The notes under the pieces: generated by a model | The model's database searches: none | Seen by the model: only the letters and a program-made list of their open reading frames with translations | What the model was told of the DNA's origin: nothing | NCBI GenBank assembly: GCA_021157525.1 | Contig: JAGGWK010000060.1 | Span: 11,293-75,292 of the forward strand | Reading direction: 5' to 3' | DNA from: Candidatus Cloacimonadota bacterium | GTDB lineage: Bacteria; Cloacimonadota; Cloacimonadia; Cloacimonadales; TCS61 | DNA length: 64,000 bases | Shown here: positions 23,946 through 53,517 of the stretch, piece by piece | How positions within the stretch are numbered: position 1 is the first letter of the stretch | How the letters are laid out: every line of letters begins with the position of its first letter | Made by a program: the position numbers and the translations under genes

Positions 23946-24033
23946 GCAGAAGTGGTGGAATTGGCAGACACGCAAGACTAAGGATCTTGTGCCCCTATCG
24001 GGTGTGCGGGTTCAAGTCCCGCCTTCTGTACCA
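23946..24033 (+). tRNA. tRNA-Leu (leuU-like; anticodon read as AAG)
   Basis: 88 nt, long variable arm, D-arm GTGGTGGAATTGGCAGACAC, T-arm GCGGGTTCAAGTCCCGC, G1-U72, encoded CCA; anticodon loop CTAAGGA. Confidence 0.8.
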
Positions 24034-30644: not shown

Positions 30645-30719
30645 ATGGTTGGGCTAGAAGGAGTTGAACCCTCACATACGGAACCAGAATCCGCTGTACT
30701 ACCATTATACTATAGCCCA
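30645..30719 (-). tRNA. tRNA-Gln (anticodon CTG)
   Basis: 75 nt, U1-A72 pair typical of bacterial tRNA-Gln, anticodon loop TTCTGGT, encoded CCA. Confidence 0.8.
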
Positions 30720-30727
30720 GAGAAACA

Positions 30728-30802
30728 TGGTTGGGCCGGGAGGATTCGAACCCCCGCATACATGGACCAAAACCATGTGTCTTACCACTTGACGACGGCC
30801 CA
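30728..30802 (-). tRNA. tRNA-Gln (anticodon TTG)
   Basis: 75 nt, U1-A72, anticodon loop TTTTGGT, T-arm GGGGGTTCGAATCCTCC, encoded CCA. Confidence 0.8.
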
Positions 30803-30825
30803 ACAAAACTTCTCAAAAATATAGC

Positions 30826-30916
<91 letters not shown>

Positions 30917-30933
30917 AAAATAGCAAAGATCAA

Positions 30934-31019
30934 TGGCGGAGGATGAGGGACTCGAACCCCCAAGGGCATAGCCCGGCGGTTTTCAAGACCGCTGCCTTAC
31001 CAATTAGGACTAATCCTCC
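30934..31019 (-). tRNA. tRNA-Ser (anticodon TGA)
   Basis: 86 nt, long variable arm, anticodon loop CTTGAAA, T-arm GGGGGTTCGAGTCCCTC, encoded CCA. Confidence 0.75.
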
Positions 31020-35994: not shown

Positions 35995-36614
35995 AAGAAT
36001 TTATCGCATTACTCCAGCAGGGCGGCATCATTATGTATCCGCTACTGCTCTGCTCGGTGATCTCCCTGGCCATCGTTATCGAGCGCTGTTTTACATTACG
36101 GCACAAGCACATAATCGTTCCGGAGATCGAGAAGGTTGTACGCTCTATTCGCACAGCCGAAGACATCCCGTTGGCACTGAAGGTCTGTAGTCAGAACAAA
36201 GGGCCCTTTGCCGCTATTATGCGGGTAGGACTGGAGAATCACACCCTCCCCGCTGCGATTCTCAAAGAGGAAATCACCAACCACGGACGCCAGCAGGTAC
36301 GGGTGCTGGAGCGGGGATTGGTGGTATTGGAAACCGTTGCTGCGGTGAGTCCCATCCTGGGCTTGCTGGGAACGGTGGTAGGGATGATCAAAGTGTTTAA
36401 AGTCATCTCCTTGCAAGGTGTGGGAGAAGCATCCGCTCTATCGGGGGGTATTTCCGAAGCACTCATCACCACAGCAGCAGGTTTGACAGTGGCCATCCCG
36501 ACCGTGATATTTTATAATTTTCTCTCCCAGAAAGCCGAGAACCTGATAATGGACATTGAGGATAATGCCAACAATCTGGTGCGGACGATTCGAGAGTTTT
36601 CCAAGGATGCATGA
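35991..36614 (+). CDS. exbB: MotA/TolQ/ExbB proton channel protein
   Basis: 207 aa, 3 TM, conserved C-terminal TM pair; ATGA overlap with tonB. Confidence 0.85.
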   Translation: MKEFIALLQQGGIIMYPLLLCSVISLAIVIERCFTLRHKHIIVPEIEKVVRSIRTAEDIPLALKVCSQNKGPFAAIMRVGLENHTLPAAILKEEITNHGRQQVRVLERGLVVLETVAAVSPILGLLGTVVGMIKVFKVISLQGVGEASALSGGISEALITTAAGLTVAIPTVIFYNFLSQKAENLIMDIEDNANNLVRTIREFSKDA

Positions 36615-37012
36615 TGAATTTTCGTGAAAAGAAGAGACGTAACGTCACTATCAATATCACTTCCCTCATCGACGTGGTATTGCTGTTGCTCATCTTTTTC
36701 ATGCTTACCACCACCTTTTCCGAGCAGCCGGGGATGAAGCTGGAATTGCCGGAAGCCAAGAGTTTTGGAACCCAGCGATTTTCTCAGTTGGAAGTTTCCA
36801 TCGGTGCTGATGGCACTCTCGTCCTCAATGGCAACAAGATTGCCACCGAGGATTTGAAGCAGGCAATCACCGACCTGGTTCCTCAGATCGAAGAAAAAAC
36901 CATCATCCTGCGGGCTGATAAAGCGGTGCAACACGGTGTGGTGGTGATGGTGATGGATGTGGCCCGCAGTGCAGGAATAGAAAAGGTGGTAATCGCAGCA
37001 AAACCCCGATAA
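36611..37012 (+). CDS. exbD: biopolymer transport protein ExbD/TolR
   Basis: 133 aa; single N-terminal TM (INITSLIDVVLLLLIFFM) + periplasmic domain; overlap with exbB. Confidence 0.85.
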   Translation: MMNFREKKRRNVTINITSLIDVVLLLLIFFMLTTTFSEQPGMKLELPEAKSFGTQRFSQLEVSIGADGTLVLNGNKIATEDLKQAITDLVPQIEEKTIILRADKAVQHGVVVMVMDVARSAGIEKVVIAAKPR

Positions 37013-37087
37013 AAGCAGTTTCATGATATCATGAAACTATATCGAGACAGGAAAACGGTGTGAACGTGACTTTAAAAATGTAAAAAA

Positions 37088-37301
37088 GGGGCCGTCCCGC
37101 AACCGCAAAACTGAGACCTCTACTCTCCATGCCTGCGGCAGGTCGCCGCACAAGTCCGCTTCCGTCTTCGTTCATTGTAACACATGAACTACGACGCGAA
37201 AAGACGATCCGATGTGACAGCGACTTGGAGAGAGGCTCAAAACGAAGATTTCAATCTCGAATCTCGATTTTCTTGTTCTTCTCTCGGTTGTGGGACGACC
37301 C
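37088..37301. repeat. about 210-bp repeat element copy 1 with 17-bp terminal inverted repeats (MITE-like or structured RNA)
   Basis: left arm GGGCCGTCCCGCAACCG vs right arm CGGTTGTGGGACGACCC; internal core CTGAGACCTCTACTCTCCAT...TGACAGCGACTT...TTCTCTCGGTT shared with copy at 52689-52892. Confidence 0.7.
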
Positions 37302-37312
37302 TTATATTAATC

Positions 37313-38290
37313 CTATTTAAATTCCCAGACGAAGGGATCCGGGCTATTGAATACAAAACGTTTCAGATAGGAAATCATGGTGTGGAGATCATAACCTGCA
37401 GGCACCACAAAGTAATCGTATTTGGCGACGAGAGCGGCAAATTCGGCATTTTCCATGAGGGCTGCATCGACGAAATAGATACCATGGCCAGGAAGGCTTA
37501 AGTCGGATGCATCCGTTGGCTCCACCTGACGATACAACACAACGTCCTGCTCTTTCAGCAGCTCTTCTTTGAGATGAGAAAAGTATTGGCCGTTGGATGG
37601 AGTAGCCAACACCACCAGTTGCTGCCCTGGTCGGAAGACATCAATGAGACGCTGTTGTTCCTCTGGAGCACTGGTGTCGGAAAGACCTGCCAGACCCCGC
37701 ACACCGCTCACGATAAACCATAGGGCAATAAGCACCGAGGCGATGCGTCCGATGAGTTTCAGCTCTTTTACTTTACTGAAAAAACCCACAAATCCCATGG
37801 GAACGAGGTATAATGTGGTGCCCAGAAAAAAGCCGAAAAAGAGGGTTGCGCCGTTTATGGGCCCCCCGAGATTCACCGCTTTTGAGAGAGCAATAAGAAA
37901 GGATGGACAGAAATTTACTCCCGTGAGCACCCCCAGCAAAAAAGCGCTTTTGGTGATGTTTGCCATCTTCGGAATGTGACATTTTTTTGCTTTTTGATGG
38001 GATCGTACTGCGGTGAGCAGCAGATACAATGAGAGTAAAATATAGGCAATGGATGTGAAAAACGTTCGGTTGATTTCGGTGATATTTTTGCCCAGATAGC
38101 CAGCGACAGCACCAAACGCCAAGTAGGTAAAGAAGCGGCCCAGAGAAATTTCCATTACCGCAAGGAAGGTTTTACCCACTTTTTTGTCATCGCTCAGGAG
38201 ATAGGGCAGGTAAATGGGTGAGCAGGTTGCCAGACACACCACCCCCGTGGCCAGTCCTAAACCCCAGCCTTCGATCAAACTTTGTATCAT
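37313..38290 (-). CDS. DsbD/CcdA-like (DsbD_2-type) polytopic membrane protein with cysteine motifs in TM helices and C-terminal soluble domain
   Basis: 325 aa; TM1 LATCSPIYLPYL resembles CcdA SPCxLPxxP, TM4 GVNFCPSFL resembles the second CcdA Cys motif; about 120-aa C-terminal hydrophilic domain; last gene of ferredoxin operon. Confidence 0.45.
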   Translation of the reverse strand: MIQSLIEGWGLGLATGVVCLATCSPIYLPYLLSDDKKVGKTFLAVMEISLGRFFTYLAFGAVAGYLGKNITEINRTFFTSIAYILLSLYLLLTAVRSHQKAKKCHIPKMANITKSAFLLGVLTGVNFCPSFLIALSKAVNLGGPINGATLFFGFFLGTTLYLVPMGFVGFFSKVKELKLIGRIASVLIALWFIVSGVRGLAGLSDTSAPEEQQRLIDVFRPGQQLVVLATPSNGQYFSHLKEELLKEQDVVLYRQVEPTDASDLSLPGHGIYFVDAALMENAEFAALVAKYDYFVVPAGYDLHTMISYLKRFVFNSPDPFVWEFK

Positions 38291-39938: not shown

Positions 39939-42416
39939 TTAATATTCTACTACTTTCAGTTTTATGGCATTTCGCGGACACCAGCTCACGCAATCACCGC
40001 AGGCTACACAAGCATCGGGATCGATGGTGGCATAGGAGCCGTGGTCAGTGATGGCATCTTCAGGACAGTGACTTACACAGTGGCCGCAGCCATTACAGGG
40101 GGGACGGTTTATCTGGTACACCAGTTTTCCGGCCGGAGAATTTGAGATTTCCGACGTATTCCCATTGTCGTCGGTGGTACGGATGGCGAAGTAGATAACT
40201 TCGCCAGAGTTCAGGCCATTCACGTCGCAGGTTTGTGATGATCCGCCAGCCAGTGGAGCCGGGGGATTGCTGAAGATATTGGCATCATCCCAGTTTGCAT
40301 CGGTGATGGGTTCATCCCAGTACCGGATGTCGTAAATCAGGGCTGTGCCGGTGGTTCCATCATCGCCGGGTGCCGTCCAGCTGATGCGGATAGTGCTGGC
40401 ATTGATTGCCAAACCGGCGACGACAGCCAAATCTGAGATGGTGGCCGGTGGCGTGGTATCTTCGGTAAGCTGGGCGATGGCAATGTTCGAGATGGCCGCC
40501 GCATTGTTATTTTCGTCATAGGCCTTGATGGCAAAATAGTAGTCCATTCCCATGGAGAGACCGGTTACCTGGTAGGTTTCGGCAGAGCCGGATGGAGCCG
40601 GAGCAGGTAGATTGGGCAACAGGTCGGCAGTTTCCCAGTTTGCCTCGGTAATCAGTGCGTTGGATGAGCGAATCTGGTAATGATCGGCAAGGCCGTCCAA
40701 TCCGTCATCTCCCACAGCGCTCCAGCTGAGGGTAATAAAAGAGTCACCTGATTCTGCCGCCAGATCGCCGATAGTGGCGGGTGGTGTAGTATCCTCCAGC
40801 AAGGTGGCAGAGGCATTGTTTGATGCTTCGGAGGTATTTTGAGAATCGTCGGTAGCTCTGATGGCAAAGTAGTACTGGATGCCAGGTTGTGGCACATCGG
40901 TAAGATAGCTTTGCACCGTGCCGGCCACTTGGGGTGCGGGTGGGTTTGGTAATGTGGTGGCATCCTGCCAGTTTGCAGTGGTAATCTGGTTTTCCGAGAT
41001 TTTTATCTCGTAGGAAACCGCCGTTCCTTCATCGCCGTCATCACCGGGAGCTGTCCAATTCAGAGTCATATCGTTCTGGGATGCCGTTACCGCCAGATCA
41101 CTGATAACAGCCGGAGGAACGGTATCGGGGATTTCGGTAGTTTCGCCGGATGGCACGTTGCTCAGGGACGATGCGTTCAGGGCGTCATCCAGTGCGATGA
41201 TGGCAAAATAGTAGGTAGTAAGGGGTTGCAATCCTTCTATCAAAAGTGCTTCGGTAGTGCCGGCTGTCTGAGGTACCATGTTTTGGGGGTAGGCTTCCAG
41301 TGCAGCCCAGTTGTCTGGTGTGATGACCTCGGTATCCACTTTGATGATGTAGGCCGATGCGGTTCCGATATTCTGGTCGTCACCCACAGCGGTCCAGTTC
41401 AGCAGGATGCTGTTCACCGATAGCGAGGCAACAGCCAGGTCGTCAATCGGTGCCGGCGCCATGATATCCCCGATGATCTGAGCCTGTACAACATTGGAGA
41501 TGGCGGCGTAATTGAGGGCATCATCGTAGGCGCGGATGGCAAAATAGTAGTTTTGCTGCAAAGGCAGATCGCTGATGATGAGGGTTTCGGCATCTCCTGC
41601 AGCAGCGGGAACCAGAGACTGGCTGTAGGTGGATGCATCCGGCCAATTGTCTGAAGTGATTTCCTGGGTGCTGTAGCGAATATCATAGCCGGCGGCAAGG
41701 CCTTCCATGGCATCGTCACCTACCGCTGTCCATCCCAGAGTGATGGTGGCTTCGGCAGAAGTTGCCGTAAGGTCTGTGATCTCTGCCGGAGCTGTGGCAT
41801 CGATGATCTCTCCAGCCACCAGGACCTGGCACACCGAGGTGCCGCTGGAGTGGTTCACCTCGTCGAAGGCTTCCAGTTCCACTGATATCTGGGCATTTTG
41901 GGGAAGATCCCGAATAATCCAGTTTTCTTCAAACCCGGCAGGAGAAGGTAGCGGAAGGATAAAATTGTAGGCAATGGGATTGTTCAACGTGTCCCGCAAT
42001 GTAAGGCCATATCGGAAGGAGTTGCCAGATGTTCCGTCATCTCCGGTAGCCACAAACTGTATCTGCACCACGCCGATGGAATCTGAAACGACGGAAAAAG
42101 AATCGATGGCGGCAGGAGCAACGACATCCGGGGTGGTGGTAAAGGCGTCTTCCGGACACTGAAATTGGTCAACACAGCGCATGCACTGTACGCATGCATC
42201 CTGATCGATATAAACGGTAAAGGTGCGGGGATCTTTTTTTATGGCGTCATAGGGACAGGAAAAGTCATCCAGACATTCGTAGCAACCCACGCATCGGGAG
42301 AACTCTACCCGAACCGGTTGTGAATCCGGCCCGACTTTCCGGGCATCATCACTACAGCTGATAACAGTAAAGAAAACAATGACTATCGCTACAACTAACA
42401 AAAAACTCTTATTCAT
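39939..42416 (-). CDS. large lipoprotein: N-terminal ferredoxin-like domain, six FN3-like repeats, C-terminal 2x[4Fe-4S] ferredoxin domain
   Basis: 825 aa from ATG 42416 (AGAGGA RBS); lipobox FTVISC; N-term CVGCYECLDDFSCP + CVQCMRCVDQFQCP; six about 105-aa repeats with WTAxGDDG...YYFAI; C-term CNGCGHCVSHCP + CVACGDCVSWCP. Confidence 0.7.
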   Translation of the reverse strand: MNKSFLLVVAIVIVFFTVISCSDDARKVGPDSQPVRVEFSRCVGCYECLDDFSCPYDAIKKDPRTFTVYIDQDACVQCMRCVDQFQCPEDAFTTTPDVVAPAAIDSFSVVSDSIGVVQIQFVATGDDGTSGNSFRYGLTLRDTLNNPIAYNFILPLPSPAGFEENWIIRDLPQNAQISVELEAFDEVNHSSGTSVCQVLVAGEIIDATAPAEITDLTATSAEATITLGWTAVGDDAMEGLAAGYDIRYSTQEITSDNWPDASTYSQSLVPAAAGDAETLIISDLPLQQNYYFAIRAYDDALNYAAISNVVQAQIIGDIMAPAPIDDLAVASLSVNSILLNWTAVGDDQNIGTASAYIIKVDTEVITPDNWAALEAYPQNMVPQTAGTTEALLIEGLQPLTTYYFAIIALDDALNASSLSNVPSGETTEIPDTVPPAVISDLAVTASQNDMTLNWTAPGDDGDEGTAVSYEIKISENQITTANWQDATTLPNPPAPQVAGTVQSYLTDVPQPGIQYYFAIRATDDSQNTSEASNNASATLLEDTTPPATIGDLAAESGDSFITLSWSAVGDDGLDGLADHYQIRSSNALITEANWETADLLPNLPAPAPSGSAETYQVTGLSMGMDYYFAIKAYDENNNAAAISNIAIAQLTEDTTPPATISDLAVVAGLAINASTIRISWTAPGDDGTTGTALIYDIRYWDEPITDANWDDANIFSNPPAPLAGGSSQTCDVNGLNSGEVIYFAIRTTDDNGNTSEISNSPAGKLVYQINRPPCNGCGHCVSHCPEDAITDHGSYATIDPDACVACGDCVSWCPRNAIKLKVVEY

Positions 42417-42770
42417 ACACCATCCTCTTTTTGCTATCAAACCAACATTCAGGTAACCAGAGAGGTGTCAAATGCAAAATTTCCGGTAAATCCGGAATAC
42501 ATACTTATGCAAGATGCCTGGAGAGGGGAACAAAGTATTTTCGTAAAAAATCTTAGATCCGGATAAAGAGTGTATTATTCACGCCACTGCTTTGTATTCA
42601 CCCGAATCCCGCTTCCAGAGCAGAGATCAATTATTTCTTGAAACGTTAGGAAGAGGTTTTGGACAAAACATAGCCTCCATTGGTAGCCCGTCCAGATCAT
42701 CCAGCCAGAGGCGATATCATGCTATTTAAGTAGATATTAACACCAGAATCCCCTTTTAGCTATCCAGAAG

Positions 42771-48138: not shown

Positions 48139-48216
48139 TGGGGTGGCTGAGGGGATTCGAACCCCCGACTCCAAGAGCCACAATCTTGTACTCTAACCAA
48201 CTGAGCTACAGCCACC
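48139..48216 (-). tRNA. tRNA-His (anticodon GTG) with encoded G-1
   Basis: 78 nt; extra 5' G pairing with C73, anticodon loop TTGTGGC, encoded CCA. Confidence 0.8.
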
Positions 48217-48229
48217 ATAAAATTACTTA

Positions 48230-48306
48230 TGGTACGCCAGCGGGGACTCGAACCCCAGACCTACGGATTAGAAATCCGTTGCTCTATCCAGCTGAGCTAC
48301 TGGCGC
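48230..48306 (-). tRNA. tRNA-Arg (anticodon TCT)
   Basis: 77 nt; anticodon loop TTTCTAA; T-arm GGGGTTCGAGTCCCC; CCA encoded. Confidence 0.8.
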
Positions 48307-48315
48307 ATAAAAAAA

Positions 48316-48392
48316 TGGTAGCGGCGCAGGGACTTGAACCCCGGACACTCGGATTATGATTCCGATGCTCTAACCAACTGAGCTACGCCGCC
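48316..48392 (-). tRNA. tRNA-Met elongator (anticodon CAT; tRNA-Ile2/lysidine not excluded)
   Basis: 77 nt; anticodon loop ATCATAA; no GGG/CCC anticodon-stem signature. Confidence 0.7.
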
Positions 48393-48406
48393 ACTCATTA
48401 AAAAAA

Positions 48407-48483
<77 letters not shown>

Positions 48484-50920: not shown

Positions 50921-51007
50921 TTTTCATTTTTTTTTACTTTGCACTTGACCTCTTACCCTCACCTTAACAATCTATGCGTCATATTTAAATTATCTATGGG
51001 AGGAGAG

Positions 51008-52669
51008 ATGGCTTTAATGACCATGAAAGAGATGTATAGTCGCGTAGATTCAGCAATTACGCAACATCAGGATGTAAAGAATAACATACCCCGTACTGAA
51101 ATGATACGTGATGCTGTGGCTAATGGAGAAGCTCTGCCGGCGGCAAATGGTGCCCTCGCTACCTGGACACCTCCAGAATCTACCGGACGGAGCCCAAAAG
51201 ATACAATCACCGTAAAACACCCGGACTCATACCACAATATCGACTGGGATTCACCTAATAATTTGCCCCTGGAACCTTCTACCTTTGATATGCTGTTTGA
51301 AGACGCCCTGACCCTGATCAATAACAAAAAGACCCTTTACATCACAGACAGAGTGGTGGGAGCCGATTCCTCCTATGCCCTGCCTACTCGCGTCATTACC
51401 GATTGCGCACTCACCGCACTTTTCACAGATAATATGTTCCGTCCCGTACCCGAAGATATCGAAAGCAGCTGCTTCGCAGATAAACCTTTCACACTGATGG
51501 TTTTCCCCTATAATAAACTTCAGCGGGACCGCTACAAAGGCCTTCTGCGCACCATGCCAGATGGTCAAACATCCAACATGGCTGTTGCAATGGACTTCGA
51601 TCGCCGCATGGGTATTATCATCGGCTCCGCCTATGGTGGTAGCGTGAAAAAACTGATGTTCACCGTTATGAACTACTATCTGCCATTGATAGGCATCCTT
51701 CCTTTGCACTGTTCGGCAAATGAAGGCAAAGACGGCGACTCTGCTCTGCTTCTGGGCTTATCGGGAACCGGGAAAACCACTCTCTCTGCAGATCCAAATC
51801 GCGCCCTGCTGGGTGACGATGAGCATGGCTGGAGCAACGAAGGTATCGCCAACTTTGAAAACGGCTGCTATGCCAAACTGATCAACCTCAGTGTCCAAAA
51901 AGAACCGGAAATTTACAAAGCCGTCTTCCACGATGATGACTACCTCAAACATGGTTCCATCATAGAAAACTGCATGATGTACCCCAACGGACATTTTGAT
52001 CTGGATGATGAACGCCTGACACCAAATTCCCGTGGCTCATACCCCCTTACCTTCCTCAGCAATATCAAGCCATCATCAAAATCGGGACATCCCACGACCA
52101 TCCTCTTCCTCACTGCAGATGCAAATGCGGTAGTGCCTCCGGTATCCAAACTCACCGCACCCCAGGCAATGTTGTGGTTCCTCATGGGCTACACCAGTAA
52201 ATTGGCTGGCACCGAAACCGGCATCGTAGAGCCGGTATCAACCTTCTCGCGCTTCTTTGGTCAGCCTTTTATGCCCTGCAATCCAAACAGATATGCCACG
52301 ATGCTGGGAGAGAAAATGAAGGAACACGGCACCAACGTCTATCTGGTAAATACCGGATGGAGCGGAGGCCCCTACGGCGTGGGCTCACGTATGGATATCA
52401 ACCTTACTCGCAGCCTGGTAAATGCCGCCCTTACCGGAGAACTGGAAAAAGTAGATTACCGCGAGGATACGCTGTTGCACATCATGGTACCTACCTCCTG
52501 CCCAGGAGTGGATGCCACTATCCTGAACCCCAGAAACACCTGGGAAGACAAAGCTGCTTTTGATGCTCGCGCACAAAAACTGGCTCAAGACTTCAGTGAT
52601 TATTTCGACAAAGCCTACGGCAATAAAGAGCTGGATCCCGCTATTGTAGCTCAATGCCCGGGAAAATAG
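51008..52669 (+). CDS. pckA: phosphoenolpyruvate carboxykinase (ATP)
   Basis: kinase-1a loop GLSGTGKTTLS, PCK signature; start at ATG 51008 after GGAGGAG. Confidence 0.9.
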   Translation: MALMTMKEMYSRVDSAITQHQDVKNNIPRTEMIRDAVANGEALPAANGALATWTPPESTGRSPKDTITVKHPDSYHNIDWDSPNNLPLEPSTFDMLFEDALTLINNKKTLYITDRVVGADSSYALPTRVITDCALTALFTDNMFRPVPEDIESSCFADKPFTLMVFPYNKLQRDRYKGLLRTMPDGQTSNMAVAMDFDRRMGIIIGSAYGGSVKKLMFTVMNYYLPLIGILPLHCSANEGKDGDSALLLGLSGTGKTTLSADPNRALLGDDEHGWSNEGIANFENGCYAKLINLSVQKEPEIYKAVFHDDDYLKHGSIIENCMMYPNGHFDLDDERLTPNSRGSYPLTFLSNIKPSSKSGHPTTILFLTADANAVVPPVSKLTAPQAMLWFLMGYTSKLAGTETGIVEPVSTFSRFFGQPFMPCNPNRYATMLGEKMKEHGTNVYLVNTGWSGGPYGVGSRMDINLTRSLVNAALTGELEKVDYREDTLLHIMVPTSCPGVDATILNPRNTWEDKAAFDARAQKLAQDFSDYFDKAYGNKELDPAIVAQCPGK

Positions 52670-52688
52670 GCAATACATCTATGAAAAA

Positions 52689-52892
52689 GGCCATCCCACA
52701 ACCGAAAAGCTGAGACCTCTACTCTCCATTCCTCAACGGAAGGTCGCCGTGCAAGTCCACTACGGTCCCGGCTTCTACGGCTAAAGCCGATACGCCGCGA
52801 CACAGCGGGGTGACAGCGACTTAGAAGTGGCGGCTTAAAACGGAAATTTGAATTTCTGCTTTTTTGCTTCTCTCTCGGTTATAGGATGGCTC
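52689..52892. repeat. about 205-bp repeat element copy 2 with terminal inverted repeats
   Basis: GGCCATCCCACAACCG ... CGGTTATAGGATGGC(TCC) arms; shares CTGAGACCTCTACTCTCCAT core with copy 1; begins 20 nt after pckA stop. Confidence 0.7.
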
Positions 52893-53073
52893 CTTTTTCT
52901 CTATGCTGAAATTCAATCCCATCTTCACTCCTTCTGGGTATCTGAAAAGCAGTAAATTTATGCGTAATCTTCCCCTAAAACGGTGTAATGACACCGGGCA
53001 GAAGACATTTTCTTTGACACAGCATCCCACCCTTCAAAGTGTTGCGCATGCAACAAAAAGGTGAGGGATAACA

Positions 53074-53517
53074 ATGTGGAGAGACAAAGCTGTAGCCTAC
53101 TGGATAAATCTGATTTCTCAGACATCCAGGACCCATATCGATCGGGAACTTGCTCCCCTTAAACTCAGCTCGGGAGCCTGCAATATCCTGATGGTGCTGT
53201 TTCGCCAAAATGGCATGTCTCAGCGGGATCTCTGCCGGATACTGCTGGTGCACAAGGCAAACATCACCAGGGCATTGCAGAAGCTTGAAAAGCAGGGATT
53301 TGTTCGCCGCAAACCAGACCCCTCCGACAGTCGCACCTACCGCATTTACCTTACGAACAAAGCCCATGACCAGCGAAGCAACATCAAGGAGCAACTCAGG
53401 GCCTGGGATATCCATCTGCGGGAATCACTACTGCCCCGGGAACAGGAAGAATTACTTCGATTACTCCGCAAGATTGCCAAATATCTGCATCCATCCAAAG
53501 CCGGTGACGCCTTATGA
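53074..53517 (+). CDS. MarR family transcriptional regulator
   Basis: 147 aa winged HTH (MSQRDLCRILLVHKANITRALQKLEKQGFVRR). Confidence 0.85.
   Translation: MWRDKAVAYWINLISQTSRTHIDRELAPLKLSSGACNILMVLFRQNGMSQRDLCRILLVHKANITRALQKLEKQGFVRRKPDPSDSRTYRIYLTNKAHDQRSNIKEQLRAWDIHLRESLLPREQEELLRLLRKIAKYLHPSKAGDAL

Follow-up and report, generated by a model that had tools for sequence, protein, structure and literature searches.

A non-coding element of about 215 bases was found in two diverged copies in the window, which is the whole analyzed stretch of 64 kb. Both copies have defined boundaries and share a conserved pairing, a deletion variant of one copy exists, and the element is absent from the related lineages and belongs to no known RNA family. 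The explanation that we tentatively prefer is that it represents a lineage-specific, transcribed and structured intergenic repeat with a terminator-like architecture, which may have been copied or mobilised as a bounded cassette lacking a promoter of its own. We infer its transcription, its terminator activity and the means of its spread.

An earlier reading of the sequence alone (the sequence-only reading) had placed two repeat copies in this stretch, which was borne out by the sequence itself and by the alignment of both copies (Table 1). A covariance model was built from the two copies (R1) and searched over the window with the filters switched off. Both copies, and only these, were recovered with 251 and 241 bits, and all other sequence stayed below 10 bits. 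The reverse strand of the copies reached 17–19 bits, compared to 240–251 bits for the strand on which the copies were recovered. The repeat is therefore real, present twice in the window and not a palindrome over its whole length. In approximately 75 kb of the genome that were read, two copies and no further pair of terminal inverted repeats could be identified.

The mean identity between copy 1 and copy 2 is 81% in a MAFFT alignment of 255 columns with the flanks included and 82% for the trimmed minus-strand units. The divergence is strongly non-uniform and conservation is block-wise. The 20-mer CTGAGACCTCTACTCTCCAT is exactly the same in both copies and was found nowhere else in 64 kb (n = 2; 0.00 expected by chance), and the block GTGACAGCGACTT is common to both as well. 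The block TTCTCTCGGTT, which had been listed as shared, matches at 10 of 11 positions. Between the copies, at most about 12 nt of homologous sequence precede the stem and about 12 nt follow it. On the minus strand, copy 1 consists of an A-rich lead, the closing stem, the interior, the closing stem again and a U6 tract. The 17-bp terminal inverted repeats described for the element are real but imperfect: in copy 1, GGGCCGTCCCGCAACCG matches the reverse complement of CGGTTGTGGGACGACCC at 15 of 17 positions, and the repeat of copy 2 is comparable.

Both copies are overlapped by short open reading frames, but neither the starts nor the ends of these correspond between the copies. A chimeric six-frame peptide query of the element, aimed at mis-called open reading frames over homologous elements, gave no match among 5.8 billion proteins. 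Both results agree with the earlier statement that the element has no coding capacity. The distances that had been given for copy 1 (12 nt from the stop of the DsbD-like gene and 76 nt from exbD) are correct within a base, since exbD ends at 37012 and the stop lies at 37313.

Table 1. Positions of the two copies, their structural parts and the neighbouring features in the window.
Feature	Position	Strand	Basis or remark
Copy 1, whole unit	37082..37303	-	Model R1 251.1 bits over 37082-37304; sequence read; fold z = -5.1
Copy 1, closing stem, 5' arm AAGGGUCGUCCCACAACCG	37285..37303	-	Column mapping, helix 1
Copy 1, AU-rich hairpin H3	37239..37271	-	Helix 3
Copy 1, long arm H4-H7	37142..37224	-	RNAalifold and column mapping
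Copy 1, invariant 20-mer	37111..37130	-	AUGGAGAGUAGAGGUCUCAG on the minus strand; exact in both copies
Copy 1, closing stem, 3' arm CGGUUGCGGGACGGCCCCUU	37086..37105	-	Continues into U6 at 37082-37087
Copy 2, whole unit	52683..52895	-	Model R1 240.6 bits over 52681-52895; sequence read; fold z = -6.2
Copy 2, closing stem, 5' arm AGGAGCCAUCCUAUAACCG	52876..52894	-	Column mapping, helix 1
Copy 2, AU-rich hairpin H3	52837..52862	-	Loop 7 nt shorter than in copy 1
Copy 2, long arm H4-H7	52743..52820	-	RNAalifold and column mapping
Copy 2, invariant 20-mer	52710..52729	-	Exact match to copy 1
Copy 2, closing stem, 3' arm CGGUUGUGGGAUGGCCUUUU	52685..52704	-	U5 tract at 52684-52688
exbD	36611..37012	+	Convergent with copy 1; ends 76 nt away
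Palindrome CAGTTTCATGATATCATGAAACTG	37016..37039	.	Perfect 10-bp; separate, between exbD and copy 1
DsbD_2 (PF13386), last gene of the ferredoxin operon	37313..38290	-	Gene table
pckA (ATP-dependent PEP carboxykinase)	50939..52669	+	Stop ~20 nt before copy 2, opposite strand
MarR-family regulator	53074..53517	+	~180 nt from copy 2; divergent from a minus-strand transcript

The folds of both copies on both strands were more stable than those of shuffled controls, with z = -5.1 and -6.2 on the minus strand and z = -4.5 and -3.6 on the plus strand (copies 1 and 2, respectively). For the minus strand, RNAalifold identified 65 consensus pairs. In 9 of these, both partners differ between copy 1 and copy 2 and still pair. 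Counted across all strain variants, 99.7% of the cells are paired. The fold is composed of an 18-bp closing helix formed by the ends, a 5-bp extension and, inside the closing helix, an AU-rich hairpin, a long arm, a small hairpin and the invariant 20-mer. The interior, with a length of ~172-180 nt between the arms, folds into the same multi-helix, multi-branch domain in both copies.

In the closing helix (helix 1) all 18 pairs are formed (100%). Nine of these differ between the copies, two by changes on both sides and seven on one side, and none is broken. Helix 3 comprises 11 pairs, of which one is changed on both sides and three on one side. The base of the long arm (GUCGCUGU with GCGGCGAC) is conserved and bears the GGACUUG block; the apical hairpin of this arm is not alignable between the copies. 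In each copy, the 20-mer can pair with the variable linker located upstream of the long arm. The registers of this pairing differ between the copies, which argues that the 20-mer is conserved for more than that pairing.

Since the consensus structure was derived from the same sequences, a less biased transfer test was run, in which pair predictions based on a single copy were transferred through the sequence alignment and evaluated in the other. This resulted in 14 broken pairs compared to 21.1 +/- 2.8 under permuted substitutions (P = 0.011), and over the range of the test in 14–16 broken pairs compared to 21–23 expected ones (P about 0.01). The proposal that the terminal repeats close a long stem is supported by the 18 pairs that were all kept and by the conserved fold. 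The sequence-only reading had named two copies genome-wide together with a lack of covariation as grounds against its proposal; covariation was found in the 9 pairs changed on both sides, so that at most half of these grounds applies.

The functional strand is probably the minus strand. Here, the closing helix is followed by U6 in copy 1 and by U5 in copy 2, whereas on the plus strand a stem leads directly into a U-run in copy 2 only and copy 1 has the tail UUAUAUU. In addition, some positions, mostly in copy 2, form G-U pairs on the minus strand and would be A-C on the plus strand. In folding energy, the strands differ within the range of random windows (n = 392), which makes this comparison uninformative. 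A scan for terminator-like sequences flagged 37104..37090 plus CCTTTTTTAC in copy 1, and the simple terminator scan flagged nothing at copy 2.

The recognisable promoters of this genome have TTGAC at -35, as seen for two tRNA operons, tonB, pckA and marR. No TTGAC -35 was found upstream of either copy on the minus strand. Immediately upstream of copy 1 lies the coding end of the DsbD_2 C-terminus, with the stop codon 11-12 nt upstream on the same strand, so that a promoter could not be accommodated there. Transcription of copy 1 would therefore come from the ferredoxin/DsbD_2 operon, with copy 1 as its tail. At copy 2, no transcription source is visible for the minus strand. The only assured transcription there is the read-through from pckA on the plus strand, which conflicts with the preference for the minus strand.

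These observations bear on the reading as paralogous small RNA genes on the minus strand, which we regard as doubtful. The RNAs would be trans-acting or protein-binding, with the 20-mer AUGGAGAGUAGAGGUCUCAG as the functional site and the closing stem and U-tract as the terminator. The 3' UTR of the ferredoxin/DsbD_2 operon would be the source from which copy 1 is released, and an unrecognised promoter divergent from marR would drive copy 2. The block-wise conservation with a 20/20 invariant segment and a varying pairing partner is consistent with such genes, as are the compensatory and wobble changes that keep the fold, the minus-strand U-tract of both copies, strain SNPs compatible with G-U pairs on this strand and an apparently low copy number. 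The missing promoter-like -35 and a homology that stops short of the promoter region argue against them, as do the lack of an orthologue in any other Cloacimonadota locus fetched, the loss of 48 nt of copy 1 including GGACUUG in some strains and a population diversity near neutral. The structured small RNA that had been suggested is supported by its fold; an independent gene for it is not supported by a -35 region on the favoured strand or by room for a promoter at copy 1.

A function of the plus strand is improbable in our estimation. The copies would then be 3'-UTR elements of exbD and pckA, and the pyrimidine-rich 20-mer CUGAGACCUCUACUCUCCAU, with its CCUC and CUCC motifs, would be a putative anti-Shine-Dalgarno seed in a 3'-UTR-derived regulatory RNA. 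Both copies have the same orientation relative to the plus-strand gene upstream of them, 76 and 20 nt past its stop codon, so that transcription of the plus strand is assured, at least at copy 2. Apart from copy 2, no terminator-like hairpin was found after pckA, and nothing but copy 2 could terminate this gene. In copy 2, the plus-strand fold also leaves most of the 20-mer unpaired. However, the plus-strand folds are weaker than those of the minus strand (z values above), the closing stem of copy 2 would contain 2-4 A-C mismatches, all four strain SNPs at paired sites would give A-C, and the tail of copy 1 has no U-run.

The search against Rfam 15 with gathering thresholds detected only tRNAs in the whole window and nothing over either copy. 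At E<=10, each copy gave only chance fragments of miRNAs, snoRNAs and lncRNAs with 11-22 bits. The novelty with respect to known RNA families, for which this comparison had been suggested, therefore stands even at the relaxed threshold.

The homologues of PckA and DsbD_2 assign the window to the Cloacimonadota, and its contig was found in NCBI as well as ENA assemblies. Loci for comparison were fetched by exact-protein look-ups with pckA, DsbD_2, L27, ExbD and folP as queries; one open reading frame of the window had no exact record. This yielded 16 contigs of the same species. The MAGs bearing the element include GCA_053985355.1, GCA_053999875.1 and GCA_053986365.1, and the samples from the source environments include SRR7051058, SRR15988955, ERZ27248110 and JGI 3300021509. 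All 14 contigs that span one of the sites bear the element (14/14), and the remaining two are short Logan contigs that end inside copy 1. As all spanning contigs are occupied, no empty site is available within the species. In other lineages, the pckA site carries a plain terminator and no element in L037 (pckA 85% identical) and L084 (74%). In L083 the next gene follows ~70 nt after pckA, and in L039 a 333-nt gap contains a short hairpin only and no copy. At the DsbD_2 site, a plain terminator without the element was found in L041 (DsbD_2 75%), and in L073-L082 (DsbD_2 48%) the next gene is 9 nt away. In the other Cloacimonadota loci, R1 matched only terminator hairpins of 30-40 nt, which were aligned to the closing stem and the U-tract. 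The lineages without the element are too distant (pckA <=85% identity) for an alignment of the flanks; an 11-nt inverted match between the flank of copy 2 and the pckA tail of L037 was no better than other chance alignments.

The exact 20-mer had 0 matches in 185,579 species genomes. Of eight matches of an exact 18-mer to JGI metagenome contigs, only one was real; this contig carries copy 2 and belongs to the same species. In IMG/VR, three pattern scans resulted in chance matches only, blastn against plasmids and phages gave nothing relevant, and no match was found in 5,426 E. coli genomes. A genome fetch anchored on Lon had a best match of only 64% identity, which indicates that the reference set is without a close relative. 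A literature search on non-coding RNAs, MITEs and 6S RNA of the Cloacimonadota found nothing. On the data reached, the element is confined to one uncultured species-level lineage of the Cloacimonadota.

The absence from the orthologous sites of related lineages would fit a classical MITE, in which a DDE transposase acting in trans recognises the 17-bp terminal repeats and the two copies are survivors of a small family. Overall, this is unlikely. The terminal inverted repeats, the size of ~215 bp, the lack of coding capacity and the intergenic position of both copies just past stop codons are in line with it, and a TA dinucleotide fits at each end of either copy, the flanks being AT-rich. As a candidate target-site duplication, the direct repeat TCTATG flanks copy 2, but only with the ends set outside the A and T tracts, and nothing comparable was seen at copy 1. 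Two copies were found in 64 kb, and the other matches resembling the terminal repeats are chance matches inside coding sequence. The gene tables list no transposase around either copy, and no parent IS with these ends was seen. The paired changes of the arms and the G-U asymmetry point to selection on a folded strand and not on a transposase site, and the strongly non-uniform divergence also speaks against a MITE. Where the sequence-only reading had left the choice between a MITE and a structured small RNA, the conserved structure was found; a convincing target-site duplication, a further copy in the window or in the fetched loci and a parent IS were not.

Two independent assemblies of the same species, L042 (10987-11161) and L043 (2955-3129), contain a copy 1 that lacks ~48 nt of the apical arm. 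The deletion corresponds to window positions ~37150-37200 and removes the otherwise conserved GGACUUG block. A GCG microhomology is present at the junction, and the closing helix still forms in this variant. The two short Logan contigs, L062 and L063, end inside copy 1. Their ends, of which that of L063 coincides with the right boundary of the deletion, suggest a coexistence of both alleles in these samples.

The nucleotide diversity of copy 2 is 0.0073, compared to 0.010 at the third and 0.0009 at the first and second codon positions of pckA and 0.0135 in the neighbouring spacer. Purifying selection on copy 2 is not clearly visible at the population level, the number of sites being small. At paired positions, the strain SNPs are C/T opposite G on the minus strand in 4 of 4 cases, whereas the SNPs of the flanking 4 kb comprise 21 C/T and 17 A/G. 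This pattern gives mild support for a constraint on the minus-strand fold (roughly P = 0.04).

A further alternative is a decaying relic without present function, namely a segmental duplicate of a former element, whose conserved blocks were kept alike by gene conversion. The near-neutral strain diversity, the deletion allele segregating at copy 1 and the missing promoter are compatible with a relic. We nevertheless consider it improbable, as all 18 pairs of the closing stem are kept though 9 of them differ, the transfer test gave P about 0.01 and the SNP spectrum at paired sites is one-sided.

In the promoter-less cassette that we prefer, the duplicated unit consists of an A-tract, a GC-rich terminal helix of 17-18 bp, an interior of ~180 nt, the helix again and a U-tract. 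The unit occupies the site at which relatives have an ordinary Rho-independent terminator, 12-20 nt past the stop codon. It would have been copied or mobilised with precise bounds and no promoter of its own, and would be co-transcribed with the neighbouring genes. At the RNA level, it may act as a 3'-end module, in which the terminal helix and the U-tract would end or protect the transcript. A second function, probably that of a binding site, would reside in the interior and particularly in the 20-mer. A terminator function leaves the invariant 20-mer without explanation. For the role of the interior, the 20-mer and the variable partner that sequesters it offer the best lead.

The cassette reading is supported by the precise bounds, the lack of a TTGAC -35 and the plain terminators or directly following genes at the sites of relatives, and further by the kept pairing, the SNPs compatible with the minus strand (4/4) and the U5-U6 ends of both copies. 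A mobile repeat, however, usually has more than two copies, whereas only two were seen in the window and the 18-mer led to one true metagenome contig. Neither a convincing target-site duplication nor a parent element or transposase was seen, and there is no empty site among the same-species contigs spanning either site. Furthermore, a 'loop' of 180 nt is unusual for a terminator, the diversity of copy 2 is near that of the third positions of pckA and the strand signal from folding energy is weak.

A more far-reaching version of this explanation appears unlikely. It would place the element in an undescribed class of structured bacterial RNA, which is ~215 nt long and branched, contains a purine-rich 20-mer sequestered by a variable partner and spreads as a promoter-less, terminator-capped 'portable 3'-end module'. 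If true, such modules would replace ordinary terminators and add a regulatory or protein-binding function to the operon ahead of them.

Known systems were compared with the element. ERIC/IRU and Correia elements are transcribed intergenic repeats of enterobacteria and Neisseria, respectively, and terminator activity is reported for Correia elements. The element is likewise short, non-coding, bounded by inverted repeats and located in intergenic regions beside gene ends, and it is probably also co-transcribed, with its pairing kept by compensatory changes. It differs from both in that two copies were seen, with no clear duplication of TA or another target, and in its branched interior with an invariant 20-mer in place of one long hairpin. 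Unlike ERIC/IRU, it has no similarity in the 5,426 E. coli genomes. Membership in the ERIC/IRU family was rejected, as neither enterobacterial homology nor a whole-length palindrome is present.

With a Rho-independent bidirectional terminator, the element shares the A-tract, the GC-rich stem and the U-tract after stop codons. It is located at sites where relatives have plain terminators, and the closing stem of R1 matches those terminators. The loop of a normal terminator is 3-8 nt long, and a short loop lets the hairpin form in the exit channel. In contrast, the 'loop' of the element comprises ~180 nt and is conserved and structured.

Similar to paralogous small RNAs such as 6S-1/6S-2 and to 3'-UTR-derived small RNAs, the element is ~200 nt long, has paired ends and exists in two diverged copies with an invariant short segment and a terminal U-tract, copy 1 being located directly behind an operon on the same strand. 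It differs from them in having no visible promoter and no orthologues found outside one species, and from 6S RNA in its branched fold, which is not a rod with a central bubble. An identity as 6S RNA was rejected, since no match to RF00013 or related families was obtained at E<=10 and the consensus is a multi-branch junction.

Type I toxin mRNAs (hok, AapA1-like) are characterised by pairing between the 5' and 3' ends and a sequestered ribosome-binding site. The element likewise has a long-range pairing of its ends and a pairing of GGAG/GAGG-rich with CUCC-rich sequence, and copy 2 has a short hydrophobic open reading frame on the plus strand. This identity was also rejected: the shared frame lacks a start codon in copy 1, the ends of the reading frames differ, that of copy 2 extends 60 nt past the element, and the substitutions keep RNA pairs. 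Translation of a small protein from the AUG within the 20-mer was discarded as well, the peptides having 16 and 33 amino acids and all changes being non-synonymous. A retron msr-msd and a guide, omega or bridge RNA linked to a reverse transcriptase, IscB or TnpB were dismissed, since the Pfam tables list only housekeeping genes and no reverse transcriptase or nuclease gene within +/-10 kb of either copy. The copies are also not attL and attR of an island, as the 15.4 kb between them are housekeeping DNA.

Taken as a structured intergenic repeat or small RNA, the element belongs to a general kind that is already known. It is a real, unannotated, structured two-copy element with a narrow distribution and of modest interest. 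If functional, it would add an unannotated structured RNA to the Cloacimonadota, for which we know of almost no described non-coding RNAs, and would be a clean example of a complex RNA domain inside a terminator stem that was copied as a unit. The main practical value is that of a candidate for an Rfam-style motif survey and for metatranscriptome checks.

Several features of the surroundings were recorded in addition. On the minus strand, the palindrome CAGTTTCATGATATCATGAAACTG resembles a terminator; it probably represents the older terminator that the convergent operons share. It is overlapped by a promoter-like site on the minus strand (TTCACA, 17 nt, TATAGT; 37064-37036). A second palindrome, TTGCGCATGCAA at 53042-53053, is located just upstream of the marR start and adjoins a TTGACA -35 box. 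It is likely a MarR operator, as predicted from its sequence, and lies in the spacer that also borders copy 2.

The tRNA genes are arranged in two minus-strand clusters of four (30649-31019 and 48142-48483) and one single tRNA (23946-24030). The cluster promoters have TTGACA at -35 and a weak AT-rich -10 region, and served to judge the form of promoters in this genome.

The longest open reading frame of pckA encodes 576 aa from a TTG start and exceeds all homologues and called genes (553-557 aa) by 19-23 residues, so that translation probably starts further downstream (region 50939-51010). The region downstream of pckA varies between lineages: a ferredoxin-type gene (L037:1872-2273) takes the place of marR and MATE in L037, the closest other lineage, a Lys exporter follows in L039, MATE follows directly in L083, and a 58-aa open reading frame is found in L084. 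Within the species, one contig (L058:1-1900; NCBI GCA_053986365.1) has a gene of the Fer4_22 family upstream of the block of RNase G, L21, L27 and pckA. Other same-species contigs have Lon, GGDEF and tRNAs at this position, which represents a rearrangement at the strain level.

The ferredoxin operon, consisting of the Fer4/FN3 protein, two small ferredoxins, a protein of ~375-416 aa and DsbD_2, is kept in the distant Cloacimonadota L073-L082. Its 833-aa protein (39939-42440) has ferredoxin-type 4Fe-4S motifs at both ends and internal repeats of ~336 nt (40504-41550), which are fibronectin-III-like according to Pfam hits in relatives.
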